DNA from: Candidatus Poseidoniaceae archaeon
Lineage (GTDB): Archaea > Thermoplasmatota > Poseidoniia > Poseidoniales > Poseidoniaceae
Length of the DNA: 32,000 nucleotides
Reading direction: 5' to 3'
Assembly: GCA_943789275.1 (NCBI GenBank)
Contig: CALSTM010000001.1
Location: forward strand, 300,001 to 332,000
The notes beneath the pieces were generated by a model. It saw only the letters and a program-made list of their open reading frames with translations. It did not search any database and had not been told where the DNA came from. Shown in pieces: positions 5,395-32,000 of the stretch (position 1 is the first letter of the stretch; every line of letters begins with the position of its first letter). The position numbers were made by a program, and so were the translations under genes.

Positions 5395-5568
5395 GTCTGT
5401 TTGGAGCCCCTGTTAATCCGAGTTTTCAACATCTGTAAACCACCCTCAATGTAGTGCAGCAAGGCATTCATCTGTTGTCCGTTCAGCGGAGTCATTAAAA
5501 GAGGCTCTAAAGTGGCGAAGACGCTTCAGCCTTGCTGCTGTCGCGCAAACACCTTTGAGGGAAAAAAT

Positions 5569-8500
5569 ATGGAACAAATAACTGGCACAAAAACCACTGC
5601 GCCAGCAGCACCGTTGGGATGGCTTATCGCTCCCCTGGCAGTTCTGCTCGCACTCGCAGCGATCAAGCTCGTCGACATTGACTTCGAGCTTACCACAGAC
5701 AACCTGGCACCGATGTTGATCGTCGGCGTCGCTGGCATCTTGGGACTCGTCCCGTCGATGCTGAACCAATCTGAATCCGCTTCTGTTTCCAAGGCCACTC
5801 TTTCCCTCTCCACTTTGGCCGTGGCGCTTATCGGTGCTGAAGCCATTTACCTGAGCGACTACGGAGCATTTTCTGGTCTCTTGTTTGCCTTTGTCACCTT
5901 CGGCGTTCATTTCATGAGCAGCCGTGGGCGACACGAAATTGGAACCATCATTGTGTTTATCGCAATGGGTATCAACGTCGGAATGGTCGTTGCATCCGAT
6001 GCACTCAGTGCTGACTCTGCTCGACTGCTCCCCGATATTTTCAATTTGGCACCAGAGGGTGAACAACCAAGTTTAGTCTCCACACTCAACTTGAGAAACC
6101 AGGCCATCGGTTACCTCTTCTTTTCATCACTGACCATTTTCGCAATCGTCGGTACGCTTGTAGCAACATTGACACGTGGTATCCTTACACCGGTCGGAGA
6201 ATCCGGTTGGTTCAGTTTCTTGAACGACGACAGCAGTTCTGCTTTCAACAAGAACAACCTTCCACTTCAAATCGCATTGGTCGTTTGGGCTTTGGCTCAT
6301 ATTGGCAGCCTTTGGAACTTTGAGACCGCTGGCATGGCCGACAAACTCGCCATCACCACTGCTGCTGACTACCATGGAGTCGTAGGCTACTGGCAAGCTT
6401 TCTTTACTGGAATGGTTGCTTTAATCGTTGCTGGAATGTTCTCGGAACGCTGGCATACCCGTGCCATGACGCTCGGCTCACTGTGGACGCTTTATGTCGT
6501 ATCGACATGGTTTGATGCAGGAATGGTTAGCTTGGATCTACTCGAAGGTAACTGGGGCAGTTTGATTTGGCTCGGCTTGACGTTCTTTATCGGCGTTGCC
6601 ATTTATTCGATTTCAACCCACGAGACGTGGGGTGGATGGGTGAACCGTGACGACCACGAATACTCCGGCGCTCGACAATTTTGGAATCAGCACTGGTCCA
6701 GTGTGATGATTGGTCTCGCTTTCTTCTTCGGTCTGGTCATCCGTACTCAATGGTATGTTGTACCATCCATGAACGCTTTCGGAACTGGAAACTGGGACAT
6801 GACCGGTGGTTCAGACCCGTGGTACATGAAGCGGGTTGTTGATTACATCCTTGCCAACAATGCTCACTTGATATTCGACGCAGACCGATTCTACCCGGTA
6901 GGCGGCATTAACCCTCGACCTCCGATCTTCACATGGTCAATTGCAGTTGTTGCAACACTTCTTGAACCGTTCTTTAACAACGGTGACGCAGTTTGGTGGG
7001 CCATTCTTTCCCTCCCTGCTGTTTACGGAACTTTGACGATTCTTCCTGTTGCTTACATTGCCCGTGAACACATCAACGAAAAGGCTGCAGTTGTGGCTGC
7101 GTGGTTGATTGCGTTCATGCCGGCCCACGTGAGTCACACGACTTGGGCACTGGCTGACCACGATGCTTTCATCATGCTTTTCATCACACTTGGATTCATG
7201 TTCTGGCTCCGTGCAGTGAAGTACGCTGGCAGTGAAAGATTGATGCGTACATCCTCTCCATCACTCCTGTCGTTTATTGCTGCATTCAAGGCCGTAGCAC
7301 AAGAACGTCGAGCCGCCTTCTCAGCAGCAGTCCTTGCTGGTGTGAGTTTCGGTATCGTTTCGCTTGGCTGGAAAGGTTTCGTTGTTGGTCCATCGATTCT
7401 TTTCTTGGCATACGCTGCCCAAGTTGCCCTCAACATGTTCCGCCGCCGTGATTCAACAACACTCAATGTCTTGTTCCTCACCATGCTCGCAGTGAACTTT
7501 TTGATGGCTCTACCGTTTTATGGACATCCACAAATCGACCTCATTTTGAACGGAACTGGTCTTCAACCGTTCTTGTTCATTGCTGTCTTCGCTATCGCCA
7601 TTAGTTTCGTAACCACTGGGTTCCGTGACAAGCCTTGGTTGCTCGTCCTCGGTGTTCTGGCCGGTGCCGGAACCGTATTCTTCATTGTGCTTTGGCTCCT
7701 CAAGGAAGCAAACATTTCCAATGCTTGGGATGTACTTTTCACTGGAAGTGGCTATTTCACCAAGACCAAGATTTTCGGCACGGTTGCTGAAGCAAATGCT
7801 CCAAACCGTGGACAATTGTTCGCACAATTTGGCCCGATTACATTTGTCCTATCATTGATTATGGGAGTTCTATGCCTTTGGTCTGCTCTGCGCGAACGAA
7901 AGCAAACTAAACTCGTGTTCGGTGTTTGGATTATTGCGGCTTCGTTTATGGCTTGGACAGCAGCCCGATTCATGTTCAATGCAACACCTGCCATCGCAGT
8001 TCTCGGTGCTTGGGGAATAGTCTCGCTTTGGAAGTGGGCAAACTGGGAAGGTATGGTCAAAGCTTGGAAGAAGATGGGTATTCGTTCTCCAGAAGACCGT
8101 ATTCGTGGTGCACGAAAGGCACTTTGGCGCACACCTTCGTTCTCTGCCATCATGCTCGTTATGATCATGTTGTTCGGACAACAATTCACCTACGGTTTGG
8201 ATGCTGCTATTCCATCCAGCAACAATGCAGAGGATGACCTCGATGAAACCATTTACAACCTCATTCCAGATGCATTCCGCTGGGAAATCGGTGGGTTTTC
8301 ACTGCTTGACGACAGCAACTACGACGGAAACTGGTACCTCGGTTCCTTTGGTTCCGGTTTCAACGACAACGGTTGGAACTCTGCCTATGAGTGGCTCGCT
8401 GAACAGGACCAAGAGATGGCATATTCGGAACGACCTGCTTTCGTTTCTTGGTGGGACTATGGTTTCCAAGCGCTTGACACCGGTGAACACCCGTCTGTAT

Positions 8501-11500
8501 CTGATAACTTCCAGTCCGGAATCCCCGCTACCGGTAACATGTTGCTGGCTCGCAGTCAAGAAGACCTCGTATCCATGTTCATATTCCAACTCGGTCAAGG
8601 TGACTTGTCTTACAACGAGGCGAACGCTGGTGACCGCGAATTTACTAACGGCTATCAGAACATCGTCGACTCATACCTCACCGCAGAACAGATGGACCTC
8701 TTCGAGAAGATTACTCTTAGTGTTGACATCGATGAAATGGTTTCGTTTACGAAATTGAACAGTTACGAAGTGTACCGAACCAACGATGACACAGTCTTGG
8801 CCAGAGGATACCATCAGACCGATGGTGTGTTCGATGATTCGGCGCAATACTGGAGAGTCTACGACGAAGGTGAACGTCTACTTTGTACCGATTCGCTTTC
8901 CACAACTTGTGTTGACGGTGATTGGTCCTCAGAAGCAGAAGCTGAAAACACCTTTTCCAACAACATTCGAACGGGTAACGATAACATTGATGGCGTGACT
9001 CACTACATTATTGGAGACTACTGGTACACCGCCGATCTTGTCGAAGAATATGGCTCTGTTTCCACACAAATACACCGCCGTAATGCACAATTGGCACTTA
9101 CCGTCCAACTTCTTTCCAACAGCCTCGACTCCGATGACATCACCGACATGTACGATGACCTCATCAACATGGAAGGCTACTACAAAGTCCAAGACTACGA
9201 AGGTGCGCCCGGGGAAACGATTGAACGTGACCACGAAATCCGATACTACGCTATTGATAACCGACTGTACCCCCGTGCAGGACGTTACACTGCTGACATG
9301 AACTACAATCAAGGTCAGCCGATGGGTATCTTTGGAGCGCCAACAATTCTCAGCGGTCAAGACGTTTCAACCTACATGGATGAAGTCTACGAAACCATCC
9401 GTGGTGACTTCCCTGACGAAATGACCCGTGCAGAAGTAGACGAAGCCATTACTCAGGACTTCCTGAACCAACAATCTGGTGCGGATATTGACCCATTGCA
9501 AGTTGAAGATGTTCGAGTTGATCATAACTCGGCTTTCTTTGACACCATGCTGGCCCGTGCGTATGTTGGATACGGTGCCTCAACCCTCGGAGTTGATGCA
9601 GGTTCTTCCAATCCTCAACCAGCCCAGCATTTCGGCCAATCCGGTAGCCCGGGCAGTATTTTGAGTCAAGGCTTACCGTTGCCTGGTGCAATGACGAACC
9701 ACTTTGTTATCGCGAATTGGTACTCTCCTGAGGCAAACTCTTCGGTTACCGCTGAAGAGCAACAAGTAGGTATTTCCTCGACCAACACATTGGTTAAGAT
9801 TCTCAAGTACTACTCAGGTGCTGAAATCTCCGGTCAAGTCACGATGACTGATAACGGTCAGGCTTTGCCAGGTGTTCGCCTGCTCATTGAGCGAGACGCA
9901 TTCTCCGGCGAAGGGACAGAAGATTTGGATCCTGATACCTATTGGGTCCCAATTGGTTACACAGATGCTGATGAAAACGGTCATTGGTCATTCGATGCAC
10001 CTGCCGGTCGCATCCGTGTCAGCGCTTATGCTGGTGATTACAACCCTACCACCGCTCAGGACAACATTCGTTCAGGCGCATTCTCTCAAGGTCTTGGCGA
10101 CATCTTAACCGAAACCAACGAAGACCGACAAATCAACGATATCTCCGCGATTCTCGGTGAAGTGGCTAACATGAGCTGGCTTGGTGAAAACCAACAAAAC
10201 ATCACTGCTGAACAAGCAGACAGCAATGCCCCAGTAAGCGCCGACTTTGACATATCTGTCGAAAGCAGCGGTATCTCTGGTCAAGTGACATGGAGCGGAC
10301 ATGAATCCTTTGATGGCGACGCATTGGTCAGTACAGACTTCGTGCTGCGCAATATTTGGTCGTTGACTGAGAACTACACATTGACAACCACCAACGGTTC
10401 GTTCACCTCGACTGACAGTAGAATTCTACAAGGGTCTGGTGAAGTCACATTTACAGAAAACGGTACCTTTGAAAGCGAAGGTGTTGCGTTTGCAGATGGA
10501 TTTACTGGAACCTTTACCCGTTCGATTGGCGATAAGCGTGTTTACACGAGCAACGGTACATGGGATGGCAAGGGTACACTCGTCGCCTCATGGGTTGCTG
10601 AAGACAATGTCATGGATTGTTTAGACAATGAAACTGCGCCTATGCCAGAAAACTCAACGATTTGTGTACTTGATGCTACAACATCACCTCTCACCTACCT
10701 GTTGGATGGCGGCGTCGAAGCGAACGGTCGTTTGACTTCCGATGGTGTCTCAACACTCGTAACAGAACACGTTGGAGACTCGTTTGAGGCAACAGGTTCT
10801 TTCGAGGGTATTGGAACACTTAACGGCACTGGATTGTTTATCGGAATTGGAGACTTCTCTGGTGAAATGGTTCAGCCAGGTTCTTTCTACCTCACTGGTT
10901 TGATTCCAGGTGTATACAACATGATTGCACAACTGGATAACGGCAAGGAAGTTCTACTCCCTGACCCAGTCAATGTTGGTATCTCGCCTTCGTACGACCT
11001 TGCAATGAGTATGCCCGGTTCAATCTTTGAGGATACCTTGCAGGATTTCTATGAAGAAGCGTTTGCCAATGAGGTTATTGAACTGGTTGATGTGGACATC
11101 GGAATGGATTCATTGGTCGAAATTCACACGGATGAAGACGGAAATTTCTCATACGGACCTCTAGCAACAGGGGAATACTTCTACCGAGTGGACGTCGATA
11201 ACGACGGCTGGTACGAGTTGAATGAAACCATCTTTGCACGTGGAGAATCTGAAAATTTCTCACTTGCCATGGATGTACCGGAAATGTACGATGTTTCATT
11301 GCAGTTAACTTCTCCAGTTGACCCGCAAACTCAGACTCCTTATGCCGATGTGGCAGAACGCACAGTCACGTTTACCAACGACGACCCTCAACTCGCACCG
11401 CTTAACGCTACATCAGATGAGACTGGAATGGTTTACATTGAATTGCCGATGGGTGCTTACACGATTTCTGATGAATCCGGTGATGACTATATCCTGTTTG

Positions 11501-14500
11501 ACTACATTGTCGTCGAGCAAGAAGATGTTGCAATGAGCAGTGCTTATGCAATTGCGACTTGGGTCAATGGAAGCATTCGTGTTGTTGATGGCGGTCTGTT
11601 CGTTGGAGATTACACCTACGAAGATTGGGCTTCTCAGGAAGAGAACTTCAAGTTGGAACAGAGTCAACCTGCTGCAGGACTTGACATCAGTTTCGTTGCC
11701 AACGAACTCGCTTTTTCAGCAACCGTTGAAACGAGTGGAAACTTCAGTGTGCGTTTGCCGAGTGGAAATACCTTCCACATGACAGCACAAAGTTTGGTTT
11801 CACAGATGTCAGCCGGTCAACTGATCGAACTCACTGGCGACGCAGAAAAGAATCTCGGCCTCATGTACCTCGAACCGACTGTATCGACAACGGGTCTTGT
11901 CTTCCTTTACGATAACTCAACTTTGTGGGATTCTTTAGCGCCAGGATATGCAGCACAGGAAGTCATTGCTACCGATTCGACAGGTCTTGAATGGAGAACA
12001 ACCATCGACGATCAAGGTGGATTCATTTTCGACCTCCAAGCAGGAGACTGGGACTTTACTGTCGATGACGCTCTTCTCAACTCAACCACTGTAACCGATT
12101 ACGCTATTCTCACAGACACAGGCGCAGTGCCTACTCTGATTGAATTGTTCGTCAACCCGGAGCATCTTTCCATTGAGCTCAACATCTTCATGGATTCGGG
12201 CGCAGATGGTATCTTTGCAAATGGGACGGGCGTCTCACCCGCATTCTCATTGGTTCCACTGAACAACCATGGTCAACAATACAACTTCACTGCAGACGAT
12301 TATACCTCCGCAGGTAACATCACCGTTGTTCTTGAACCTGGTCTTTACAGCATTGATTTCAATGCAACCGAAGCCACGGATGAAAATGCAACCGACTATT
12401 ACTTGATTGGTGAGTCGTTCTTTGAAACACTGGTTGTTGGAATTGAAGCATACGAAGACTCCGTCTCGTATGCGCTACGCAACGAATTCCTTGTGACAGG
12501 TGTTCTCACGAACTCCTCAGGCGATGGAGTCGAAAAGCAGTTCCTGCTGCGTAATGCAGCAGATGATTTGTGGCACAACATTGCCTCTGATGTGAACGGT
12601 AGTTTTGCCTCTTATGTCCCTGCGGGTGACTGGGTTGCAATTGTTGCACCGTTCTCTGCCTCGAACGACAGTATGGAGACCTACCGTGAAGCCTTCACTG
12701 TAAGTGACGATGCTTCAATGCGAACGGGTCTCAACTTCTCTTCCATCGAAGTGGTTACCGTGAACTTCCAAGTTCAGGAATTGTACACAGACTCGAACAT
12801 GAGTGATGTTCGTATTACGCTTGTCAGTCACGATGGATTTGGAAACGTTACGCTATCGAAATCTGATGTGAACGGTAATGTAAGCGAAACCATCATGCCT
12901 GGTACTTGGAGTATGTTCCTGAACCAAACAGAACCTCAACGCCAGTGGAGCCTCGACACTTTTGATGCCCCATTCTCAACCGAAGATGCTGTTGATGGTG
13001 TTCTCAATCTTGGTATTGTTTCACCAGTTCTCAATGTAGAAATTGGCGGAAAGGTCTTCTGGGACCTTGATGATAACGATCTACCCGGTGGCACTGAAGG
13101 CGTTTCAAACACTACGGTTACAATCCTTGGCCTCAACAACACCGAAGTCGATACCAATGTGTCCACCGATGAATTTGGTGTTTGGTCGTTGTTTGTTCCT
13201 ATTCAAGATGAATACCAAGTGACCGTCTCGAAGGAAGGTTTCAGCACAGAAGTTTACAATGTGTCCAACACCAGCGCTTACCCTGTTTATTCGTCACCTG
13301 AATCGTACGATATCGAGATGACTGCAGGAAACGTTACTGTTTCTGGTAACGTCACTGATATCAACGATGCTGAACGCTTGAACGGGTCCGTTGTGAAGTT
13401 GTTCCCAAGCTCGGGCATGGCTGGTGAACCGATTGTGGTTTCCTCTCAATACGCAAACGAACAATTGACATGGTCGTCGGATATTTCCCCAGGTGAATGG
13501 ATTGTTGTCGTTACCGAAGCAAACGCTGGCGAAAACGGCGGTGGAGTTGCGATCGGTCTTCTCGATGCAAGCATCTCAGATGGTGCTACACTTGATTTGG
13601 AAATGTCGCTTGGAGGTTGGCTTGACCTTACAACAACATGGACCGATATCCAACTTGATGAATACCATGCAGGTTCAGCCAGTAATGGTTCAATCTACAT
13701 GAACGAAACTGCAGTTGTAACGATTGCCATTGGTGAGGAACTCGAATGGGACTTGCCAGTTGGTGCTGATGGGACAATTAGCGTACTCATGCCTGCCTCA
13801 GAAGTCGAAATGGACTCATCGTTTATTACCATCCAGCACGATTTGGAACTGGAAATGGAATACATTGGTGGTGCAGTAACAACCATTGCTGAAGGACGCT
13901 CTCCAGTATCCCTATCCTACACTCGAAGCATCAATTCTGATACATCGATCGCTATGGTTGAAGGCAGCGCTGTGAACGCAACTGTTGACGGTGAATTGGC
14001 TTTCACCGCTGTTGAAGAAGGCGAAGGATACCAACATATTGAATTCGATCTCGAACTTAATTATGAAGGAACAGAAACCGTCCAAGTCTTCGATGTTCTC
14101 GGCCAAATTGTCGTTTCACCGGATGAAGCGGATTGGAAGATCGAGTTCAAGAACGGTTCAACCTATGAGGACGCATACCAAGTTTCCCTTGGAATCGGTA
14201 ACAGCAGCGAAGATACATCGGTTCAGTCTTCTGTAACCGTTGGCATTCGAATCACTGTGGCCAATCAGTCCACTGCTTGGCACCTTGAAGAGCCTCACAC
14301 ACTGAAGGTACGTATGCTTACTGACAACACGCCTTCGAGTGAAATCGCAGTTACGGTTCAAGTGCCACAAATCTATGACTTTGAAACTTCTGATGAAGAC
14401 GAGTCAATAGGAATTGGTGCAGGTGGTAACAGTATGTTTGGATTTGTTCTCGAAAACACCGGTAATGGTGATGATTCCTATACCGTTGAACTCTCGGATA

Positions 14501-15141
14501 ACATTCCTGAGGGATGGGAAATCACCCCAATGAGTTCAGTTATCACCATCGCTAAGGGAGATACACGCTCTCAGATGTTTACGGCATTTGCTCCTGAAGA
14601 CTTTGACTCGGGTTCAAAGGTAATCACCGTCATCATCACAAGTGAAGACGGAGTGAAAACGGATTCCTTCGATGTGGAAATCGTCACGGCTGATATCAAT
14701 CTCATGGTCGACCAGGGTGAGATCGCAACACTCTCGGATAACATTGCAAACAGAGCCGGAAAGTTGGTTATACCAATCAAGAACTCTGGCTTCTTGGGCA
14801 GTGACGATATCGTTGTTTCTGCGAGTATCCAAGGCGGCCGAAGCTTAGGTTCCCAAACAGTTTCGATTGAACCTGAGGGGACGACAAACGTCACATTCGA
14901 CTTGGAAGCATCCGATGCTGCAGGTACAGTTCGATACGATGTGCGTATTGAAATCGTGGGCGAGGACAGTGCTTTCACTGACAAAGCAGTTGATGAGTTC
15001 GATTTCAAAATTGAATACTACATCGATGAAACCAGTGATGAAAGCCCACTTTTCACGATTCTTATCGTCGTCCTTGGAGCCTTAGTTCTCTACGGTGGAG
15101 TTCGTATTTCACGACGAAGCAGCAAGGGCTCACGTTTCTGA
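5569..15141 (+). CDS. aglB: Giant AglB/STT3-type oligosaccharyltransferase fusion: extra polytopic N-domain, OST core, about 1,780-aa beta-sandwich ectodomain and a C-terminal TM anchor
   Basis: One ORF with no stop from 5512 (GTG) to 15141. ATG at 5569, with GAGG 9 nt upstream, is the likelier start. OST motifs are GSDPWYMKR (D codon 6814-6816), ADHDAF (7156-7164), GTVAEANAP (E codon 7789-7791, TIXE/SVSE type) and WWDYG (8449-8463) followed by SVSDNFQSG. Downstream there are CarboxypepD_reg-like stretches (ISGQVTMTDNGQALPGVRLLIERD) and a NEW3/CARDB-like stretch (FVLENTGNGDDSYTVELSDNIPEGWEI). The terminal TM is LFTILIVVLGALVLYGG, followed by RISRRSSKGSRF. Confidence 0.9.
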   Translation: MEQITGTKTTAPAAPLGWLIAPLAVLLALAAIKLVDIDFELTTDNLAPMLIVGVAGILGLVPSMLNQSESASVSKATLSLSTLAVALIGAEAIYLSDYGAFSGLLFAFVTFGVHFMSSRGRHEIGTIIVFIAMGINVGMVVASDALSADSARLLPDIFNLAPEGEQPSLVSTLNLRNQAIGYLFFSSLTIFAIVGTLVATLTRGILTPVGESGWFSFLNDDSSSAFNKNNLPLQIALVVWALAHIGSLWNFETAGMADKLAITTAADYHGVVGYWQAFFTGMVALIVAGMFSERWHTRAMTLGSLWTLYVVSTWFDAGMVSLDLLEGNWGSLIWLGLTFFIGVAIYSISTHETWGGWVNRDDHEYSGARQFWNQHWSSVMIGLAFFFGLVIRTQWYVVPSMNAFGTGNWDMTGGSDPWYMKRVVDYILANNAHLIFDADRFYPVGGINPRPPIFTWSIAVVATLLEPFFNNGDAVWWAILSLPAVYGTLTILPVAYIAREHINEKAAVVAAWLIAFMPAHVSHTTWALADHDAFIMLFITLGFMFWLRAVKYAGSERLMRTSSPSLLSFIAAFKAVAQERRAAFSAAVLAGVSFGIVSLGWKGFVVGPSILFLAYAAQVALNMFRRRDSTTLNVLFLTMLAVNFLMALPFYGHPQIDLILNGTGLQPFLFIAVFAIAISFVTTGFRDKPWLLVLGVLAGAGTVFFIVLWLLKEANISNAWDVLFTGSGYFTKTKIFGTVAEANAPNRGQLFAQFGPITFVLSLIMGVLCLWSALRERKQTKLVFGVWIIAASFMAWTAARFMFNATPAIAVLGAWGIVSLWKWANWEGMVKAWKKMGIRSPEDRIRGARKALWRTPSFSAIMLVMIMLFGQQFTYGLDAAIPSSNNAEDDLDETIYNLIPDAFRWEIGGFSLLDDSNYDGNWYLGSFGSGFNDNGWNSAYEWLAEQDQEMAYSERPAFVSWWDYGFQALDTGEHPSVSDNFQSGIPATGNMLLARSQEDLVSMFIFQLGQGDLSYNEANAGDREFTNGYQNIVDSYLTAEQMDLFEKITLSVDIDEMVSFTKLNSYEVYRTNDDTVLARGYHQTDGVFDDSAQYWRVYDEGERLLCTDSLSTTCVDGDWSSEAEAENTFSNNIRTGNDNIDGVTHYIIGDYWYTADLVEEYGSVSTQIHRRNAQLALTVQLLSNSLDSDDITDMYDDLINMEGYYKVQDYEGAPGETIERDHEIRYYAIDNRLYPRAGRYTADMNYNQGQPMGIFGAPTILSGQDVSTYMDEVYETIRGDFPDEMTRAEVDEAITQDFLNQQSGADIDPLQVEDVRVDHNSAFFDTMLARAYVGYGASTLGVDAGSSNPQPAQHFGQSGSPGSILSQGLPLPGAMTNHFVIANWYSPEANSSVTAEEQQVGISSTNTLVKILKYYSGAEISGQVTMTDNGQALPGVRLLIERDAFSGEGTEDLDPDTYWVPIGYTDADENGHWSFDAPAGRIRVSAYAGDYNPTTAQDNIRSGAFSQGLGDILTETNEDRQINDISAILGEVANMSWLGENQQNITAEQADSNAPVSADFDISVESSGISGQVTWSGHESFDGDALVSTDFVLRNIWSLTENYTLTTTNGSFTSTDSRILQGSGEVTFTENGTFESEGVAFADGFTGTFTRSIGDKRVYTSNGTWDGKGTLVASWVAEDNVMDCLDNETAPMPENSTICVLDATTSPLTYLLDGGVEANGRLTSDGVSTLVTEHVGDSFEATGSFEGIGTLNGTGLFIGIGDFSGEMVQPGSFYLTGLIPGVYNMIAQLDNGKEVLLPDPVNVGISPSYDLAMSMPGSIFEDTLQDFYEEAFANEVIELVDVDIGMDSLVEIHTDEDGNFSYGPLATGEYFYRVDVDNDGWYELNETIFARGESENFSLAMDVPEMYDVSLQLTSPVDPQTQTPYADVAERTVTFTNDDPQLAPLNATSDETGMVYIELPMGAYTISDESGDDYILFDYIVVEQEDVAMSSAYAIATWVNGSIRVVDGGLFVGDYTYEDWASQEENFKLEQSQPAAGLDISFVANELAFSATVETSGNFSVRLPSGNTFHMTAQSLVSQMSAGQLIELTGDAEKNLGLMYLEPTVSTTGLVFLYDNSTLWDSLAPGYAAQEVIATDSTGLEWRTTIDDQGGFIFDLQAGDWDFTVDDALLNSTTVTDYAILTDTGAVPTLIELFVNPEHLSIELNIFMDSGADGIFANGTGVSPAFSLVPLNNHGQQYNFTADDYTSAGNITVVLEPGLYSIDFNATEATDENATDYYLIGESFFETLVVGIEAYEDSVSYALRNEFLVTGVLTNSSGDGVEKQFLLRNAADDLWHNIASDVNGSFASYVPAGDWVAIVAPFSASNDSMETYREAFTVSDDASMRTGLNFSSIEVVTVNFQVQELYTDSNMSDVRITLVSHDGFGNVTLSKSDVNGNVSETIMPGTWSMFLNQTEPQRQWSLDTFDAPFSTEDAVDGVLNLGIVSPVLNVEIGGKVFWDLDDNDLPGGTEGVSNTTVTILGLNNTEVDTNVSTDEFGVWSLFVPIQDEYQVTVSKEGFSTEVYNVSNTSAYPVYSSPESYDIEMTAGNVTVSGNVTDINDAERLNGSVVKLFPSSGMAGEPIVVSSQYANEQLTWSSDISPGEWIVVVTEANAGENGGGVAIGLLDASISDGATLDLEMSLGGWLDLTTTWTDIQLDEYHAGSASNGSIYMNETAVVTIAIGEELEWDLPVGADGTISVLMPASEVEMDSSFITIQHDLELEMEYIGGAVTTIAEGRSPVSLSYTRSINSDTSIAMVEGSAVNATVDGELAFTAVEEGEGYQHIEFDLELNYEGTETVQVFDVLGQIVVSPDEADWKIEFKNGSTYEDAYQVSLGIGNSSEDTSVQSSVTVGIRITVANQSTAWHLEEPHTLKVRMLTDNTPSSEIAVTVQVPQIYDFETSDEDESIGIGAGGNSMFGFVLENTGNGDDSYTVELSDNIPEGWEITPMSSVITIAKGDTRSQMFTAFAPEDFDSGSKVITVIITSEDGVKTDSFDVEIVTADINLMVDQGEIATLSDNIANRAGKLVIPIKNSGFLGSDDIVVSASIQGGRSLGSQTVSIEPEGTTNVTFDLEASDAAGTVRYDVRIEIVGEDSAFTDKAVDEFDFKIEYYIDETSDESPLFTILIVVLGALVLYGGVRISRRSSKGSRF

Positions 15142-15198: not shown

Positions 15199-16419
15199 AT
15201 GGAAGGACTTGACGGCGTTGAATTTCTCCCTGAACCGGATGATTCACGAATCCTTTCGGTGATTGATTCATCTGCTGTGGGCTTTCAAGACAATTGGAGG
15301 TCAGAGGTTACCGGTTGGGCTCCAATGCAAGCGGTGCCAATTCCTCGCATGCGTCGCCGTAAGATACTCGTAACCAACGGTATTGTATTTTCAGTATTGG
15401 TTATTGTTATGCTCTACGTGTGGAACTCCGGGTTACTTTTCCTTGAAATACCACCACCCAAATCGGAATGGGCGGTGGAACAATCACAATTTGATGACTT
15501 ATCAGAAATGGGATTAACAGGGGAAGGTGTTCGAGTTTGTATGGTTGATACCGGTATTGATTTGAGTAATCCAGCTTTTTCGAATCTCCAAGTTACGTTC
15601 AAAGACATGATTGGGAACTCCAATGCTCCAGTCGATTACGGTTTTATTGCTCACGGAACGCTCATGGCCGGTATACTCGTTTCAAACAACCACCAAATTG
15701 GTGTGGCTCCAGGAGTTGAACTCGCCATGGTGGCTGCCTTGGGCGCTGATGAAGATGATCTGAACAGCGGTTCGGAGGATACTGTGGCACGATCAATTCG
15801 TTGGTGTCAAGACGAGTATCAAGCAGACATTATCTCCCTCTCGCTTGGAGGCGAACAAAACGTCGAAATGCATACAGAAGGGAGCAGCGTTTCTGCAGTC
15901 CGAAGGGCAGTTGACTCTGGCATCTTTGTAGTGGCTGCTGCGGGAAACGACGGTGGTAGTGCCGATGACGGTTTGGTGTCTGTGCCGGGTAATGTGCCAC
16001 GAGTCATCACAGTCGGGGCATCAACCGAGTCGCAGCAAGTTTGGGCAAACTCATCAGCCGGCTCTCAAACACTCCCTAACGACGACTTGCGTCAACATCC
16101 ACACATGAAGCCGGAAGTCATTGCCCCGGGTCAAAACATCATCAGTACTGGTATTGGAGATACATGGTTCTCGAGCAGCGGAACATCCGATTCTACGGTA
16201 TTTGTTACCGGCGCTCTCTCACTTCTCCTTGAAGCGTTTCCCGAATACAAGGCATCATCAAATTCAGACGGCACATGCATTGATGCGGTCAAAAATGCGC
16301 TGATGAATTCTGCTCTCAAATACGATGATTCGTCAATCCATGATGACCGATGGGGCTACGGTCAACTGCAGGCTATGGCGTGGTATTCTTCACTTGAATC
16401 GCAATCACCTACGTGCTGA
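15199..16419 (+). CDS. Membrane-anchored subtilisin-like serine protease (peptidase S8)
   Basis: The catalytic triad is in canonical order and context: VCMVDTGID (D codon 15547-15549), HGTLMAGIL (H codon 15652-15654) and SGTSDSTVFVTGALSLL (S codon 16186-16188). The oxyanion Asn lies in VAAAGNDGG. A single N-terminal TM (ILVTNGIVFSVLVIVMLYVW) follows an RMRRRK patch. Confidence 0.9.
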   Translation: MEGLDGVEFLPEPDDSRILSVIDSSAVGFQDNWRSEVTGWAPMQAVPIPRMRRRKILVTNGIVFSVLVIVMLYVWNSGLLFLEIPPPKSEWAVEQSQFDDLSEMGLTGEGVRVCMVDTGIDLSNPAFSNLQVTFKDMIGNSNAPVDYGFIAHGTLMAGILVSNNHQIGVAPGVELAMVAALGADEDDLNSGSEDTVARSIRWCQDEYQADIISLSLGGEQNVEMHTEGSSVSAVRRAVDSGIFVVAAAGNDGGSADDGLVSVPGNVPRVITVGASTESQQVWANSSAGSQTLPNDDLRQHPHMKPEVIAPGQNIISTGIGDTWFSSSGTSDSTVFVTGALSLLLEAFPEYKASSNSDGTCIDAVKNALMNSALKYDDSSIHDDRWGYGQLQAMAWYSSLESQSPTC

Positions 16420-19500: not shown

Positions 19501-21004
19501 TTGGATTTTCCAAGAATTGCAAACCGGGCAGTATGATTTCCGTATTTGGGCGTCTGACAGTGACTTCTGCAAGACGAAATCCAGTTGGGTTGATTGCGTA
19601 CATGAAACACGTAGCATCAACATCAACACCGACAACGCAATTCCATTCGTACAGCTTAGTGAACCGTTGAACTCTGATATTATCCGAGCGAGTGAAACGC
19701 AATTGATTCAAGGTGTCGCACTTGACAACGATGGATTGGTTACTCGCGTCGAGATATCAATCTTTGATCTTGCCAGCGGTGTGACGATTAACAACGGTCC
19801 AAACCCGGTTACGAACTTTGCACCAAACGGTGCTTGGTACACCACCTGGGACACTTCCGACCTCATTCACGACCAACAGTATGAACTGGTCATCAAGGCA
19901 TGGGACGGTAAGGACTTCTCGAACGAGGAGCGTATACGAATTACAATCGACAATCCAACCGATGCCGACAATCTGGTACCAGAGTTCAACTCGACAGGAT
20001 GGGCCAGTACAATCACCTTGTTCTGCGATTCAAACCCAACCAAACTCGACCGCTGTAACGGTGGAATCAGTATTGACCTCATGGAACACTTCTCCGATGC
20101 AGACGGTGCCGATGATGGTAAGACGAACGGATTGAGTTTCGATATTTTCGATGACCCTACCAACTTAGACGATGACTTCTACGGCGATTACCTCACCCTT
20201 TCAGACACGGGTGTTGTTCGCTATGATCCAGCGTTTGTGACTGGACTCTCGAACGAAGTATCCGAATGGTCCTTAGTCGGTCTCATGTTTGTAGCTCGTG
20301 ATGCTTATGATTCAGTTGCCTATTCCTACAAAGTCAATGTGGTCGTTGTCGAAGTGTCCTTCAGTGTTGTTCGAGACAACACTGGACTTTTGGGCCCAGA
20401 TTCACCAGCATACTTCAGTGGCCAAGGCTTGCCCAACAGTCTGGTTGAAGCGCGATTTGACAGCCTCAAGGGTGTTCGAATTAACCAAACACGGGTCAAT
20501 GCAGACGCAACATGGTCGATGGAAATTTCCAGCAGTCAACTTTCAGGAATGGAAGGTACGAGTAATATTATCTTTGAAATGGATGATCAAGTGTACACCG
20601 TTCCTGGTGAGAACAGTGACGCAGTATTCAAACTCAGCGTCAGTGATGGCTCTGAATCGAGTTCGAATCTCATGATGATTGTTGCTGCAGCGATTGGAGT
20701 CATCGTGTTGCTTGGTGCGGGAATGTTCTTCTTCCAAGTGGAGTATGATGACATGGATGAACTCACTGACATTGCTCAAGCGGAACAAGAGGTTGCATCA
20801 GCAGATCCTTACGCTTGGGCCAAGGCTCGTCAAGAACCAGTCAGTATCCCATCCACTGCTGTTGCTGAAACACCGGTTGCTGCTCAGCCAGTCGCGGCTG
20901 CTGTTCAACATGCAGCTCCACAATCCTCTCAACATCCCGGGTGGCTATGGGATTCTGAATCCAACAGTTGGGTTCCAGATCCAAACTTCACTCCAGAACA
21001 GTGA
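16553..21004 (+). CDS. Large secreted surface protein: right-handed beta-helix (PbH1/NosD-like) region, Cys-flanked DNDGD motif, Ig-like domains, C-terminal TM and a Pro/Ala-rich cytoplasmic tail
   Basis: The ORF is open from GTG 16490, but ATG 16553 lies downstream of the repeat/promoter-like region. The signal peptide is SISLVALLLLSTLTGLIAIPTASA-VNE. Beta-helix repeats include NTISGAAEGSGFGIRSSTVTANSNIIG...NNTIQDTAKEAVLIGE and NNQISNNTG...DNTVTNNGGDGMRI. CADGYDNDGDTKVDSDDADC lies at 18755-18814. Big-like units include SPADGSSHTTGKVTFAGTASDP. The TM is LMMIVAAAIGVIVLLGAGMFFF. Confidence 0.85.
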   Translation: MSTEAQYYIRDKNSNGTEASILKNTTSHKSISLVALLLLSTLTGLIAIPTASAVNETKSGIITGTETWTGTMNLNGDVVVAEGAQLIVNAGTVINIPYGYYIDVEGAICIGDSACGASSGSSGNQARFVWSTPTDYTAQGRCYSNNTNNPNYNADTACGSGMIIRSTIDQAITSIKFAHFENAYGHPFETNQVSGKQYGALVFDGSTTNAQGLSFQNINTSNIMAIDLAAPTISDSTFTLGVDGNGFDAAAVRAYGAGAGILATMEVSNSVFTGNTEAECGNDGRSLVYIESSYVDFSNLDIKDNSYGFFMKESSGSITDSTINVKCSGIDTNSHKVTGTINHTLTISDNTITTADGSGITAYDGAIVVAERNTISGAAEGSGFGIRSSTVTANSNIIGPIGGWNGLWIYGTSDVVAENNTIQDTAKEAVLIGEYHYLDQGWNVPTPTAARLYLANNQISNNTGTCNSQMYGGDFPCPAIHVFMSSATLYDNTVTNNGGDGMRIKASIVNAQRNTIEVSGFAANVSLFDDNYGNKYGSIAYFSENTYTNATQVYNITESRVTVQSEFIPDAGGNELYPVQLRWLGPECPYVLDECLQVPPTAIMPPAFMPLALEVVENSTVFSYADLQNFDSSKIHVQNQNSAWGSQVREGELVRYQVKAQNSNVVDATVIIRDATGLPLYSLTTDAFGFTPEVSLPSDFLLDRNWNHNVGETNVQIPGELDAQGNPVFIDENSCADGYDNDGDTKVDSDDADCTGGRELPFYTVEAYKFGKGQKDFNFVLSGGIDDVINLVNMKPSVTVTQNDGFSFATTASLSGSSWDGISGPYALDQIAYENQFGLIKRVEVQPPGSTDWYSAIDTSGANGMISKSVHPFKTWSFEWDLSAHPEGEGDVTFRVRSYDGLDYSPVEVRKYKLNLVAPTMLVNSPADGSSHTTGKVTFAGTASDPYTGTWGSDIQSIWFDINGPNGYTANFEVSGSTAWAYDWIFQELQTGQYDFRIWASDSDFCKTKSSWVDCVHETRSININTDNAIPFVQLSEPLNSDIIRASETQLIQGVALDNDGLVTRVEISIFDLASGVTINNGPNPVTNFAPNGAWYTTWDTSDLIHDQQYELVIKAWDGKDFSNEERIRITIDNPTDADNLVPEFNSTGWASTITLFCDSNPTKLDRCNGGISIDLMEHFSDADGADDGKTNGLSFDIFDDPTNLDDDFYGDYLTLSDTGVVRYDPAFVTGLSNEVSEWSLVGLMFVARDAYDSVAYSYKVNVVVVEVSFSVVRDNTGLLGPDSPAYFSGQGLPNSLVEARFDSLKGVRINQTRVNADATWSMEISSSQLSGMEGTSNIIFEMDDQVYTVPGENSDAVFKLSVSDGSESSSNLMMIVAAAIGVIVLLGAGMFFFQVEYDDMDELTDIAQAEQEVASADPYAWAKARQEPVSIPSTAVAETPVAAQPVAAAVQHAAPQSSQHPGWLWDSESNSWVPDPNFTPEQ

Positions 21005-21063
21005 TGCACCTTCTGCTCACATGGGCGGAAGTGTTGAAGAGTAGAAAAGTGCGAGGTGAGAAT

Positions 21064-23589
21064 ATGTCTGTTCAACCAAAGCCTGGGGTGCAAGAGCGAA
21101 TACTTCTGCATCTTCTTGATTATTCAGATTTCAAGAACAGCGTAGAAGTCCCCTTTGCACTCTCGCAGATGGGTATTGCGAACGCTGTAGCGATTGCCCG
21201 CTCCAATGTGCCTCGAGCGATTGCTGGACTCAAAGATCAGGGCTTGCTGATTGAACGGCAAGCACACGTCACAGGTGTTTCTCGTAAGCGCAAGGCGTAT
21301 TTTCTCACCGACCCTGGCATGAACGTTTCAGAAGATACGTGGGAGCGTCTGCGAAACTTCCAATTGCGCAGTATCATGGACGATGGGATGATTATCAATT
21401 CGACACTGGGAGAAATCAATGACCATCTCGAATTTTCTATGCGACCTGTCGACATTATTCGATACATGGACGATAACTGTGTTCTCGATACCCGTTCACT
21501 TTCTGCAGATTTAGTCGAGCGGGATTTGTCGAAACATGTGGAAAAACAACTGGTGACATCGCTTGGTGACTTACCACGGCTACGGCATTTCTACGGCCGT
21601 GAAAAAGAACTCGATAACATGGCAAATTTGATTGATGCTCGTGCAACAACACTTCTGATACCCGGTATTGCGGGCATTGGAAAAACAACGATTGCTTCAA
21701 AATTAATCGAGCGTTTCATGCACCGACGTAATCTGTTGTATCATCGTTGCCAAGATTGGGAAGGTTCCCGTTCGTTCTTTGAATCGATTGCTGATTGGTT
21801 GGCCAACATCGGTGATTCAACATTCGCTGACTACTTGGCAGCAACCCCTGTCCCACAACCCGCTGATGCAGCACGGCTTCTGGTAGATTCCCTCGAAGGT
21901 ACACCAAGTTTGATTGTCATCGATGACTTTCACAAAGTCGCCGATACCACGCTGCATCAGACCTTTCAAGCAATGTCGCTCGCATTGCTGGGCAGCGAAG
22001 AGGAAATCGGGCTTGTGATTTTCTCTCGTTCATTCAAACCTGTGGTTCCTACAAAAGACGCTGAAGGTCGAATTGCGAGTCTCGTTCTTCCTCTTGATGG
22101 TCTGGATTCGGATGCTGGGCGTCAACTCTTGAGCAGTTTTGAGAACTTGGGTGATGAACAATGGCTTCACATTCACGGATTATCAAGAGGTCACCCTCTG
22201 GTTCTTGAGTTGATCAACCGCGGTGCTTCTGCTGGTGCCTTCCATGAAACCCTTGAGAATTATGTTACCGTTGAAATCTTTTCGAAATTGAGCGGGGAAC
22301 AGAAGCGTGTGTTGTCTGCTCTTGCCATATACCGTGAGCCTGTCAATTTGTCTGCCCTTGCTGAGCAAGGACTCGATACAGATGAACTTGATTCTCTTGT
22401 TGAACAAGGTCTTGCTCGGCAAGGCGATGTGGATTTCTACGATGTCCACGATTTGATTCGAGAATTTTTAATTCGAAGCCTCGAAGAAAGTACAAAGCAA
22501 GAGTTTCACGCCAAGTGTTGCACTTGGTACGAGAAACAAACTTCTGCACCTGCTGTTTTGATTGAACATATATTCCATCTTATCCGTTCTGGAAAAGATG
22601 ATGCGGCGGCTGTACTCATTGCCGAGCAGGGAAGAGCACTGATTGCACAAGGGCACATGGAGTTACTCGGGTTGATGGAAGGTTTGACTTTTGATTCACT
22701 GGATGTAACAATTCATATGCGTGTTCGACAATTACACGGCGAATTGCTCGTTCTTCTTGGAAGGTTTTCGGAAGCCGAAGCAGTCTTTGTCTCAATCGCT
22801 AAACTGGATCCAAATTCGAAAGCCATTCGGTTGAGAGCGGAAGTACATTCAGCGCTTGCTGATCTTGCCCTGAAACAAGGTGATGCTGACAAGGCATTGG
22901 GTATGCACCGTGAAGCTTTAGAGAAATTCATTGAATGCGGTGATGCCAAAGGCGCTGCTCGTTCATACAATAACATGGGTTATTTGCTCCGGCGTAAAAA
23001 CGATTTTACCAAGGCCCTGGAAGCATATGGGGAAGTTGAAAAAATCCTCGATGAATCCGACGGTACAGAATTGGTTGGGACTCAGTTGACTCTTGCTCGT
23101 GCTTTCTTAGAACTTGATGAAATTGACCGTGCCCGAGACCATGCCATCCAAGCGTTCGAAGTGTCCGATGACGGTACCGATGTACTTCTTCACGCACGTG
23201 CACAGGCTGTTCTTGGCCGGTACTATGCCAAGGTTGGCGATGCTGACGTGGCATCTCACCACTATACCACTGCACTTGAGACGATGAGTGTCGCAGGTGA
23301 TTTACTTTCTCTGGTCGAGATAACTATTCTTCTCGGGGAAGTCTTGCAAGATGCTGGAAGAGCAGAGGACGCAATGGAACATTACCGTGAGGCTCTTGTC
23401 ATAGCCGAAGCCAACGATTTGCGAATGCAGATTGGAGAGTTGCTTTCTCGACTTGGCGGTGTGGCACCAGACAAGCGCCGTCGAATGGAATACCTCCAAA
23501 GAGCGCTTGCAGTATTCAGGGAACTGGGTGCAAAATCAAGAATGCGGGATGTTCAGGCACAGGTTCATGCAGCCGTTATGGGCCGCTGA
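21064..23589 (+). CDS. STAND NTPase (NB-ARC/AP-ATPase-like) with an N-terminal winged HTH and C-terminal TPR repeats; probable signal-sensing transcription regulator
   Basis: The wHTH is FALSQMGIANAVAIARSNVPRAIAGLKDQGLLIERQ...KRKAYFLTDPG. The P-loop is LLIPGIAGIGKTTIA (about 21661-21690). Walker B is SLIVIDDFHKV. GLVIFSRS is RNBS-B-like and SRGHPLVLELI is GLPL-like. TPR-like helical pairs include SYNNMGYLLRRKNDFTKALEAYGEV and AEDAMEHYREALVIAE. The 20968 start is TTG. I prefer ATG 21064 with AGGTGA 6-11 nt upstream. ATG 21004, which overlaps the previous stop as TGATG, is an alternative. Confidence 0.85.
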   Translation: MSVQPKPGVQERILLHLLDYSDFKNSVEVPFALSQMGIANAVAIARSNVPRAIAGLKDQGLLIERQAHVTGVSRKRKAYFLTDPGMNVSEDTWERLRNFQLRSIMDDGMIINSTLGEINDHLEFSMRPVDIIRYMDDNCVLDTRSLSADLVERDLSKHVEKQLVTSLGDLPRLRHFYGREKELDNMANLIDARATTLLIPGIAGIGKTTIASKLIERFMHRRNLLYHRCQDWEGSRSFFESIADWLANIGDSTFADYLAATPVPQPADAARLLVDSLEGTPSLIVIDDFHKVADTTLHQTFQAMSLALLGSEEEIGLVIFSRSFKPVVPTKDAEGRIASLVLPLDGLDSDAGRQLLSSFENLGDEQWLHIHGLSRGHPLVLELINRGASAGAFHETLENYVTVEIFSKLSGEQKRVLSALAIYREPVNLSALAEQGLDTDELDSLVEQGLARQGDVDFYDVHDLIREFLIRSLEESTKQEFHAKCCTWYEKQTSAPAVLIEHIFHLIRSGKDDAAAVLIAEQGRALIAQGHMELLGLMEGLTFDSLDVTIHMRVRQLHGELLVLLGRFSEAEAVFVSIAKLDPNSKAIRLRAEVHSALADLALKQGDADKALGMHREALEKFIECGDAKGAARSYNNMGYLLRRKNDFTKALEAYGEVEKILDESDGTELVGTQLTLARAFLELDEIDRARDHAIQAFEVSDDGTDVLLHARAQAVLGRYYAKVGDADVASHHYTTALETMSVAGDLLSLVEITILLGEVLQDAGRAEDAMEHYREALVIAEANDLRMQIGELLSRLGGVAPDKRRRMEYLQRALAVFRELGAKSRMRDVQAQVHAAVMGR

Positions 23590-28438: not shown

Positions 28439-28455
28439 TGTAGGCTGGTCTCCAA

Positions 28456-31400: not shown

Positions 31401-32000
31401 ACCTGATGGCTGGGAGTCCGGGGGCTCATGCACATGGGATCCCTCTCGACAAGGCGTAAACCCGCTCAATGCTTCAGATTTGTACCAAAACCCTGATGGC
31501 GATGGATACGATATCAACCACAATGGTATACTGGAAGAAAATGAAGCATTCGTAAACTATCTCGAATTCCACGTCCGTTCGGACTTGTTCAACGGTAACC
31601 AAACCTTCACCGGCGAGTCATTGCCTAACGGTTTTTCCACTGACTTGTTCACCAACATCAGTCTCAACGGCGCCCCTGAAGCGTCATTCGGTGACCGTGC
31701 ATCAGGCTCTGTAACCGCCCTGCAATCGGCCACAAGTGTCGGCTCTTCCAATCCTTTGAGTGCCGACTCGGACGCTGATGGAATGCCAGATGGATGGGAA
31801 GTTTGGTTTGCTCGTTGGAATATTCTTGATGATGCTTGGACCCTGAATCCTTTGGATTCTTCAGACCGTTGGCAAGACGCAGATGATGATGGAATGGCGA
31901 ACTGGGAGGAATACAATTCCATCGCTCCAGAATATTCAGAAACCGACCAAAATCGTTCCTCACCTCAATGGTTTGTAACCACGGTTGGCTCGGCTTTTGC
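28456..32000 (+). CDS. Large secreted Ca-binding protein: thrombospondin type-3-like repeats flanking a beta-propeller-like core (5' partial, runs off the window)
   Basis: This ORF is not in the supplied track. I translated it by hand. There is an in-frame TAG at 28441-28443, an ATG at 28456, and no stop through 32000 (1,181 codons). The signal peptide is MRRSLTTLLTTLAVVASLLFMSQFPAVSS. There are at least 15 D-x-D-x-D-G-type repeats, for example DTDGDGMPDGYE, DSDNDGMPDGWE, DSDGDGMPDGWE and DSDADGMPDGWE. The central region (about 29570-30700) has Reg_prop-like blades: MLFVGTDRGLLTAE, VLWFGTPSGVHMLN and EVLVGSIKGMWAISG. Confidence 0.85.
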   Translation, partial: MRRSLTTLLTTLAVVASLLFMSQFPAVSSVSNLHPDTTDGSKPPSTDTDGDKIPDVHENLFEEWMNWSAVDGRAVSIEGMDSNDASDALLDLDKDGLNATEEYCWPYPANCTEPGFPRGLTGKVDGEGERSYLDPRISDTDGDGMPDGYEAYMCERVGGYNVFTFKYECNTFDPLNASDLYDDPDEDGFDVNRDGVLSITERFSSPEEYIQGAPTNHTNELDGLWCSATLPEGSVFENWPFIPTGANATFQNLLSACTENATMVIDEDIWLGTDPLLADSDRYHWDGYSIRRLFPSFGDGIPDGWEVHFGLEPLNRTNALLDPDNDGWDANRDGGVSPDVSRTRTALALGESLSTLEEYFVHNDNGNSVLPGMKTALLGTQDNSVEYMPLSFDAPADEMSLIHYDLRDLDTDDLHAYATTKYGLTVFDYEQMVSYDHWMPEGIELHSSLLLSQEDSLFALAVATSAGLAVAPLQADGNLGPLSSWSWSLSDELFALTMLTIDGQNTLLLGLGNAGDGSVFEISSSAEIIDQYPISEDLETALRQSNASVTELAHGPAGGGANMLFVGTDRGLLTAETTTARDEFEPSWRFYYTPETTPFPTSIDELRSLSLGMVANPAEVRTMILDGPNAANAQVLWFGTPSGVHMLNLVENSISHSGLLEHPGVEGRYVREYNNIHALHVTGDEVLVGSIKGMWAISGDYSAVYGFQEQETIYGEIVTIQSLLIDGNTTILTGSSPGKYANIELINPGANDSDNDGMPDGWEVANGLDPTDPWDSLFDADSDGLDLDQAEDGFLERLWTNLDEYRFVSQSLNGYNSTNPKVGDTDGDGLGDGSEYFGFFYETSNLWCHYTVQMQYVCDDAAGQAANATYLGLSSTDRGTDPTNFDSDGDGMPDGWEIEHRRWIGSSFTGGNNWTLDPNRADDANWDADSDGLPNLCEYQWSVVRSAAVDGLLYESHGESVNSSLEWFEADPNNIDSDGDSLPDGWESGGSCTWDPSRQGVNPLNASDLYQNPDGDGYDINHNGILEENEAFVNYLEFHVRSDLFNGNQTFTGESLPNGFSTDLFTNISLNGAPEASFGDRASGSVTALQSATSVGSSNPLSADSDADGMPDGWEVWFARWNILDDAWTLNPLDSSDRWQDADDDGMANWEEYNSIAPEYSETDQNRSSPQWFVTTVGSAF

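Follow-up and report, generated by a model that had tools for sequence, protein, structure and literature searches.

The window analysed here is a stretch of 32,000 nucleotides (nt) from a Candidatus Poseidoniaceae archaeon (assembly GCA_943789275.1, contig CALSTM010000001.1), and it contains one giant gene related to aglB, which encodes the archaeal oligosaccharyltransferase (OST). The features of this gene and of its neighbours are collected in Table 1. Judged from its sequence and its family, the product is a true AglB with an undescribed ectodomain fusion that spans the phylum Thermoplasmatota, to which an unexplained addition of ten helices is joined in marine group II.

The open frame on the plus strand ends at nt 15141 and has two possible starts, GTG 5512 and ATG 5569. 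ATG 5569 is the probable start codon, since GAGGG is located 8 nt upstream, the leader of ~70 nt in front of it is conserved and the database protein P0001 (3,190 amino acids (aa)) begins there. The length of the open frame, 3,209 codons in DNA with 49% GC, excludes a chance origin, and the nucleotide composition is even over the domain junctions of the gene.

Table 1. Features of the giant aglB gene and of other genes in the window (positions in nt of the window; residues in aa of the giant protein).
Feature	Position	Strand	Basis or remark
Conserved 5′ leader	5494..5568	+	TATA-like ATTAAAAGAGG, CAGCC..GCTG inverted repeat, GAGGG before ATG; upstream regions of 15 Poseidoniaceae loci aligned
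Giant aglB gene	5569..15141	+	3,190 codons plus stop; 100% identical to cluster P0001; at least 120 full-length homologue clusters
N-terminal extension, aa 1-370, predicted ten transmembrane helices, N-terminus inside	5569..6678	+	Hydropathy and AlphaFold2 model
OST (STT3/AglB) transmembrane domain, aa 371-870	6679..8178	+	Pfam STT3, TIGR04154, phmmer to 3WAJ residues 9-440
GSDPWY, external loop 1, aa 414	6808..6825	+	D416 pairs with Asp of GGNDPWY in A. fulgidus AglB; family-invariant
DHD, aa 530-532	7156..7164	+	Pairs with DHH of A. fulgidus AglB; family-invariant
TVAE (TIXE-type; TIXE/SVSE of external loop 5), aa 738-741	7780..7791	+	Family-invariant
Extracellular catalytic/globular OST region, aa 871-1410	8179..9798	+	aa 935-1002 match AglB C-terminal domain chains 3VGP, 3VU0
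WWDYG, aa 961-965	8449..8463	+	Pairs with WWDYG of 3WAJ; family-invariant
DNFQSG, aa 979-984	8503..8520	+	Pairs with ANPFQAG of A. fulgidus AglB; family-invariant
Strongly conserved block, aa ~1153-1524	9025..10140	+	Conservation 0.7-0.9; without Pfam match
Ectodomain, aa 1411-3155, 188 kDa, pI 4.05, 45 sequons	9799..15033	+	Sequence and family alignment
Transthyretin-like (CarboxypepD_reg / NOMO-like) module, aa ~1837-1875	11077..11193	+	Pfam scans
CarboxypepD_reg module, aa 2510-2566 (best stretch)	13096..13266	+	Pfam
NEW3 / FixG_C-like Ig module, aa 2961-3023	14449..14637	+	Below Pfam cut-off in window protein
CARDB-like module, aa 3051-3127	14719..14949	+	Below Pfam cut-off in window protein; above in relatives
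C-terminal transmembrane anchor, aa 3160-3178, and basic cytoplasmic tail RISRRSSKGSRF	15046..15138	+	Hydropathy; same feature in nearly all relatives
CARDB membrane protein, 590 aa	1565-3337	−	Precedes PurD
S8 subtilase gene	15199-16419		Downstream of giant gene in practically all Poseidoniaceae loci examined
Beta-helix/Big_7 surface protein, 1,504 aa	16490-21004		After S8 in essentially every Poseidoniaceae locus examined
STAND-type NTPase (AAA_16/nSTAND6 and TPR repeats, weak N-terminal helix-turn-helix)	20968-23589	+	Overlaps end of beta-helix gene by 37 nt
Three consecutive genes, 158, 736 and 361 aa	23591-27356	−	N-termini RRDEHAAATELGYIFTF, QRDEEAVSAAVATVLLF, RRDQRAVSEVLGVVMML like archaeal type IV pilin (class III) signal peptides
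TSP3 gene, >1,181 codons, runs past window end	28444-32000	+	Signal peptide, bacterial-type thrombospondin-3 calcium-binding repeats

The central part of the protein harbours the hallmarks of an OST. An initial annotation, made from the letters of the window, had recognised five motifs (GSDPWY, DHD, TVAE, WWDYG and DNFQSG), and all were confirmed in their order and places. Pfam STT3 (PF02516) matched aa 404-674 with 55.4 bits against a cut-off of 24.5, and the match to AglB_core was below the Pfam cut-off. The best-matching NCBIfam subfamily was TIGR04154 (oligosaccharyl transferase, archaeosortase A system-associated), which covered aa 380-998 with 166.7 bits, below its cut-off of 450. A phmmer comparison to the Archaeoglobus fulgidus AglB structures 3WAJ and 5GMY gave an E-value of 9e-9 and paired GGSDPWY with GGNDPWY, ADHD with NDHH and SWWDYG...DNFQSGI with SWWDYG...ANPFQAGI. 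Hydropathy placed ~12-13 segments in the OST membrane domain, for which 13 helices in a GT-C fold would be expected, from a first helix at aa 379-397 to a last one near aa 851-869. When a low-confidence model of the core was used in Foldseek, the top seven matches were AglB, STT3 and PglB only (probability 1.00). Motif conservation and homology thus give good support to the window protein being an AglB/STT3 oligosaccharyltransferase, and it would be expected to be catalytically active.

Compared to A. fulgidus AglB-L (PDB 3WAJ, 5GMY, 7E9S), which was the top Foldseek match, the membrane domain aligns over aa 373-814 of the window protein, and the GGxDPWY, DHx, TIxE-type and WWDYG...FQxG motifs follow in the same order. 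However, the identity is low, and AglB-L, with 875 residues as crystallised, begins at the helix that equals window residue ~379 and ends after the globular domain. It has neither the 10-helix N-extension nor the 1,745-aa ectodomain and second anchor of the window protein.

Upstream of the OST helices, ~370 aa with about ten hydrophobic segments had been noted. Kyte-Doolittle hydropathy gave 9-10 segments within aa 19-348, and the AlphaFold2 model of aa 1-372 consists of ten long helices (predicted local distance difference test (pLDDT) 75, predicted template modelling score (pTM) 0.75). Acidic loops alternate with Arg-rich loops in the N-extension, which suggests that the N-terminus is cytoplasmic and the number of helices even, as the normal OST orientation requires. 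No family in Pfam or NCBIfam and no PDB fold in Foldseek matched the extension. Homologues were not found outside the family of ~3,150-3,230-aa proteins, and a hidden Markov model (HMM) of the extension matched only the giant Poseidoniaceae-type proteins described below as tier 1. We also considered the extension as a duplicate of the OST membrane domain, which was rejected (hhalign probability 0.3%).

The long C-terminal continuation that had been described, with its second anchor, was found as well: the ectodomain (aa 1411-3155) is followed by a hydrophobic segment at aa 3160-3178 (mean hydropathy 2.35) and a basic tail. Together this gives a predicted layout of 24 helices (10 + ~13 + 1), in which ~2,290 residues would be outside the cell between the OST membrane domain and the last helix. 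Every domain match in the ectodomain is a module of the beta-sandwich type. Of the modules named initially, CarboxypepD_reg (PF13620) stood, with 59.6 bits over the whole protein in two stretches against a cut-off of 32.3. NEW3 (PF10633; 16.5-20.4 bits, cut-off 24.4) and CARDB (PF07705; 10.8-17.8 bits, cut-off 22.7) did not reach family membership in the window protein. Among the relatives, P0162 exceeds the CARDB cut-off with 50.1 bits and P0148 that of NEW3 (25.4 versus 24.4), and the NEW3 match of P0139 is sub-threshold at 22.3. The window ectodomain likely contains the NEW3 and CARDB folds, at scores below the family cut-offs. NCBIfam choice_anch_T gave a sub-threshold match at aa 2922-3034. 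A PDB sequence search with the ectodomain found nothing, and this search and the Pfam scans revealed no recognised binding or catalytic domain in its 1,745 aa. Counting repeats in the ectodomain was attempted and given up: family-built HMMs of four modules matched only themselves, the modules being too divergent.

To follow the family, we searched 5.8 billion proteins and scanned loci using one genome per species. The protein search returned at least 120 clusters at 50-100% identity, with a query coverage of 99-100% in nearly all of them; all are 3,125-3,227 aa long except two truncated entries (2,829 and 2,904 aa). The locus scan yielded 75 loci. With one exception their titles name Poseidoniales, Poseidoniaceae, Poseidonia or other archaeal metagenome-assembled genomes (MAGs) of marine group II, and the giant frame is intact in nearly all. 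The conserved gene order is orf228, CARDB protein (−), (CDP-archaeol synthase (−)), PurD, giant gene, S8 peptidase and beta-helix protein. A complete archaeal locus (CARDB protein, PurD, giant AglB, S8 and beta-helix protein; ~54-65% identity to the window proteins) is also present in NZEQ01000036.1, titled 'Verrucomicrobiales bacterium isolate ARS100'; almost certainly, a Poseidoniaceae contig was mis-binned into a bacterial MAG here.

With aa 371-1410 as the query, exhaustive searching by HMMER gave 787 representatives, among which the giant proteins form two tiers. Tier 1 comprises proteins of 3,146-3,228 aa with 44-68% identity, in which the OST begins at residue ~335-399, hence with the N-extension present. 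Tier 2 contains ~100 representatives of 2,060-2,775 aa with 29-36% identity, in which the OST begins at residue ~10-140. WWDYG is found in all tier-2 proteins but one (WWDFG), a C-terminal helix with a basic tail in nearly all and a sequon-enriched ectodomain in most; their Pfam architecture is STT3, AglB_core, several CarboxypepD_reg and then NEW3/CARDB. The named members are all Thermoplasmatota and include cultured organisms with complete genomes: Thermoplasma volcanium GSS1 (TVG1271204, 2,076 aa, UniRef name dolichyl-phosphooligosaccharide-protein glycotransferase), Oxyplasma meridianum (2,113 aa), Cuniculiplasma (2,091-2,111 aa), Caldiplasma (2,093 aa), Aciduliprofundum sp. MAR08-339 (2,081 aa) and Ferroplasma sp. 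WP_309214711.1 (2,056 aa).

In BLASTP the similarity of the window protein to tier 2 runs past the OST core over the block at aa ~1153-1524, which is homologous to the region directly after the core in Thermoplasmatota AglBs of 2,100-2,700 aa. The ectodomain and C-terminal modules are similar weakly but collinearly. This collinear similarity beyond the OST core indicates that the fusion is ancient and vertically inherited. Tier-2 AglBs share with the window protein the core, the post-core block, the sequon-rich ectodomain and the C-terminal helix with its basic tail. They differ in that the N-extension is absent, the ectodomain is 350-700 aa shorter and some end in archaeosortase-type signals. 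The cut-offs of Loki-CTERM or Heimdall-CTERM are reached in two distant relatives, and in several the match to PGF-CTERM stays below threshold. From this comparison, an OST plus ectodomain plus anchor of 2,060-2,775 aa is the norm across Thermoplasmatota, and what is specific to the Poseidoniaceae-type branch is limited to the N-extension of ten helices and the added length of the ectodomain. The AglBs of Haloferax, Pyrococcus and Methanococcus are about 900-1,050 residues long. The architecture had been called unusual, which is true relative to characterised AglBs; across Thermoplasmatota, however, it is common and already annotated as AglB/STT3.

We next counted N-X-S/T sequons and compared them to the expectation from composition-preserving shuffles. 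The ectodomain contains 45 sequons (the initial annotation gave about 46), whereas 16.8±3.4 were found in shuffles (z about 8). In 118 full-length homologues the ectodomain mean is likewise 45 versus 19.6 expected. The catalytic globular region (aa 871-1410), on the other hand, is sequon-poor, with 1 versus 4.8 expected and a homologue mean of about 1.5 versus 4.5. As controls, the reversed motif S/T-x-N occurs 17 times in the ectodomain, and 41% of its Asn are located in sequons compared to 20-22% of Gln or Asp in equivalent contexts. N-x-T is favoured over N-x-S. Twenty-eight sequon columns are kept in at least 60% of the 118 homologues and eight in at least 96%, in a region with an average identity of ~50%. 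It had been asked whether other secreted proteins of the same genome are equally dense. The ectodomain is enriched 2.3-2.7x, whereas further proteins of the locus with a predicted surface location are at 0.8-1.4x over ~50 species (means: CARDB protein 1.41x, S8 1.22x, beta-helix protein 0.79x). For the two comparison proteins named earlier, the single sequon of PurD was found again and the STAND protein has four rather than three. The reversed-motif and Gln/Asp controls, the conserved columns and the lower enrichment in neighbouring surface proteins together show that the ectodomain sequons were selected as such.

A further sequon is located in the OST membrane domain at nt ~7978-7986 (aa 804-806, FNATP). 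It is kept in 97-100% of the 118 homologues, unlike the other sequons of the OST core, which are not conserved. It may be an outside-facing self-glycosylation site or a structural motif.

Two observations were made around the tier-2 genes. In T. volcanium, O. meridianum and Aciduliprofundum, the three cases examined, a gene for a sequon-rich membrane protein of ~260 aa is translationally coupled to aglB, its start overlapping the stop of the giant gene by 4 nt (L078 14228-15007, L079 14339-15148 and L080 14243-15016). The product, a type-I membrane protein, has a signal peptide, numerous sequons and, at its C-terminus, a helix ending ...PKWKK; two of the three proteins match CARDB weakly. It may be a dedicated partner or substrate of the giant AglB. 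We also considered whether this protein is a piece that became fused into the window protein, which was rejected, as no similarity was found; it has no counterpart in the window. In Acidiplasma sp. (P0322) and relatives, AglB has 1,425-1,442 aa and covers 59% of the ~2,060-aa Ferroplasma form, which suggests a secondary truncation of the ectodomain in one lineage. These short AglBs are a natural experiment on the dispensability of the ectodomain.

In the leader of the giant gene, the element CAGCCT-NN-AGGCTG is a perfect 14-bp palindrome in many Poseidoniaceae relatives and degenerate in the window (CAGCCTTGCTGCTG). It may act as an operator or as a hairpin in the 5′ untranslated region; its stem is invariant among relatives, so that evidence from covariation for a hairpin is absent. 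Rfam and tRNA scans of the window gave no matches. Downstream, the three genes on the minus strand probably form a pilin-like operon for a surface structure, two of them matching DUF7289 or Pilin_N weakly. The TSP3 protein at the window end contains 19 sequons versus 11.6 expected.

These data lead us to the reading that the giant AglB is an active OST whose fused ectodomain is a heavily N-glycosylated module of the surface coat, which we hold at a probability of roughly 0.55. By homology with A. fulgidus AglB and PglB, D416, D530/D532 and E741 would hold the metal and activate the acceptor Asn, and WWDYG would bind the Ser/Thr at position +2. The ~45 sequons of the ectodomain, including the 28 conserved in position, would be glycosylated by the giant AglB, in trans from one molecule to its neighbour or while the chain is still nascent. 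The enzyme would thus be fused to its own substrate, and the product would be a coat glycoprotein tethered at both ends with the enzyme itself as anchor.

Archaeal S-layer glycoproteins, such as the Haloferax volcanii S-layer glycoprotein (SLG) with its PGF-CTERM and Sulfolobus acidocaldarius SlaA, are likewise large, acidic, beta-rich and sequon-heavy and have a C-terminal membrane or lipid anchor. SlaA has 31 sequons (PMC2948927), and the density in the window ectodomain, 2.6 per 100 aa, is within the SlaA range. Unlike these proteins, the ectodomain is continuous with an enzyme, tethered at both ends and without a match to an S-layer family.

Most Thermoplasmatales have no S-layer. In these S-layer-less Thermoplasmatota the ectodomain may form part of a disordered exterior glycoprotein layer. 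Both Cuniculiplasma and Oxyplasma encode giant AglBs of ~2,100 aa. Cryo-tomography published in 2025 has shown that Cuniculiplasma divulgatum and O. meridianum lack an S-layer and have a dense, unordered exterior glycoprotein layer of ~20 nm, the composition of which is unidentified (PMC12448462). Our hypothesis is that the ectodomain contributes to this layer.

Several points weigh against a coat role. Sequon enrichment speaks for a domain glycosylated like a surface protein and says nothing of a job in the coat. No S-layer family model was found among the Pfam or NCBIfam matches of the window protein, and no archaeosortase-type CTERM signal matched at its C-terminus at E<=1. To our knowledge no images of the marine group II envelope exist, so that the link to an exterior layer is extrapolated from distant relatives. 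An enzyme-substrate fusion also has no obvious kinetic advantage, as AglB glycosylates many proteins in trans. Concerning the enzyme, the DK/MI motif of the Ser/Thr pocket was not located by eye downstream of WWDYG, and the AlphaFold2 model of aa 371-1560, made with a 12-sequence alignment, was too poor for placing this motif or for interpreting the block at aa 1153-1524 (pLDDT 45.8, pTM 0.34), so that only its family-level Foldseek ranking was used. Finally, the block at aa 1153-1524 is conserved like the active site, which hints that part of the extension belongs to the enzyme machinery and not to a coat.

This block, common to distant relatives, is also what an unlikely rival draws on, namely that the ectodomain and C-terminal helix are working parts of the OST, built-in equivalents of ribophorin I and OST48/Wbp1. 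They would recruit or hold unfolded substrates or place the enzyme beside the Sec translocon, and the glycans would only stabilise them. The fusion is kept in every lineage examined, weak NOMO-like transthyretin matches are present, and beta-sandwich domains with a terminal helix resemble the accessory subunits in outline: in eukaryotic OST, whose catalytic subunit is homologous (matches to STT3A, Stt3 and PglB), luminal beta-sandwich domains and extra helices likewise surround STT3. However, ribophorin I/Ost1 and OST48/Wbp1 are separate subunits, and Pfam, NCBIfam and PDB sequence searches detected no similarity of the window ectodomain or N-extension to OST accessory subunits, which makes this an analogy only. 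Moreover, aa 1900-3155 are the least conserved part of the protein (identity 0.37-0.55), as expected of exposed structural modules, and lineages differ in the length of the ectodomain (~1,050 to ~1,850 aa). The characterised AglBs of A. fulgidus and Pyrococcus furiosus act as single subunits without such domains.

That the ectodomain is an adhesin or polymer-binding module for attachment to particles or substrates, unrelated to glycosylation and placed on a convenient, abundant anchor, seems improbable to us. CARDB, NEW3 and CarboxypepD_reg are common in adhesins and carbohydrate-active surface proteins, and in marine group II such a module would cooperate with the subtilase and the 1,504-aa beta-helix/Big_7 protein, the order with which is conserved across Poseidoniaceae. 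The fusion, however, is older and wider than this gene order, which was not found around the giant AglBs of Thermoplasmatales; the neighbours in Thermoplasma, Oxyplasma and Aciduliprofundum differ. The lack of a recognised binding or catalytic domain and the tethering at both ends, unusual for an adhesin, also argue against it.

The presence of the S8 gene directly next to aglB in all Poseidoniaceae loci raises an equally improbable alternative, in which the product is a polyprotein cleaved after insertion, for example in the linker at aa 1376-1400 and possibly by this peptidase, to give an AglB of normal size and a separate anchored glycoprotein. The linker, located between the conserved region and the sequon-rich part, is indeed poorly conserved and indel-rich, and a dominant membrane glycoprotein of ~150 kDa, roughly the size of the Thermoplasma ectodomain, was reportedly seen in Thermoplasma acidophilum by Yang and Haug in 1979 (work cited in PMC2952790). 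A conserved cleavage motif, however, was not identified, and S8 is not beside the Thermoplasmatales genes. Cleavage would in any case be compatible with a coat role rather than opposed to it.

Last, an assembly chimera or a missed frameshift or stop merging two or three genes is refuted by the comparative data: the gene is split in L019, L055, L046, L073, L064, L076 and L077, but the split positions differ between loci, neighbouring genes (PurD, S8) are broken too in L076, L077 and L064, as is typical of sequencing indels, the composition is uniform over the junctions, and the same fusion, which the initial annotation had proposed to seek in related archaeal genomes, is one intact frame in over 100 assemblies that come independently from many studies. 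The long contigs L076 (887 kb) and L077 (696 kb) have the giant gene in three pieces, and PurD or S8 is likewise broken up, a pattern that uncorrected indel errors typically produce. Entries of this kind give rise to spurious 'stand-alone' N-extension and ectodomain proteins in databases; the candidate stand-alone N-extension genes P0296 and P0299 were rejected as frameshift artefacts, PurD or S8 being split on the same contigs.

We thus favour an active OST with a glycosylated coat module. A wider and more tentative version, which we hold to be possible rather than probable, is that the giant AglB is a principal building block of the envelope in Thermoplasmatota, being enzyme, membrane anchor and coat polypeptide at once, for the ~20-nm layer and presumably also the marine group II envelope. 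The N-extension would then add a further membrane function, for example in handling lipid-linked glycans or docking to the translocon. With no detectable relatives or fold match, this extension is a separate question specific to marine group II.

Public databases have contained the giant form ever since the Thermoplasma genomes, under the annotations STT3, AglB or GT39. No mention of or comment on a giant or fused AglB was found in the full-text literature searched. Among the enzymes of archaeal N-glycosylation AglB is the only universal one, and its biochemistry and structures all come from versions of ~800-1,050 residues. A whole phylum, including the abundant marine group II and cultured Thermoplasma, has an AglB two to three times larger that is fused to a sequon-rich surface domain. 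This points to an unstudied coupling of the glycosylation machinery with envelope construction in S-layer-less archaea and provides a concrete candidate for the layer of exterior glycoprotein described in 2025. As the same architecture is present in cultured relatives, the question is directly testable.

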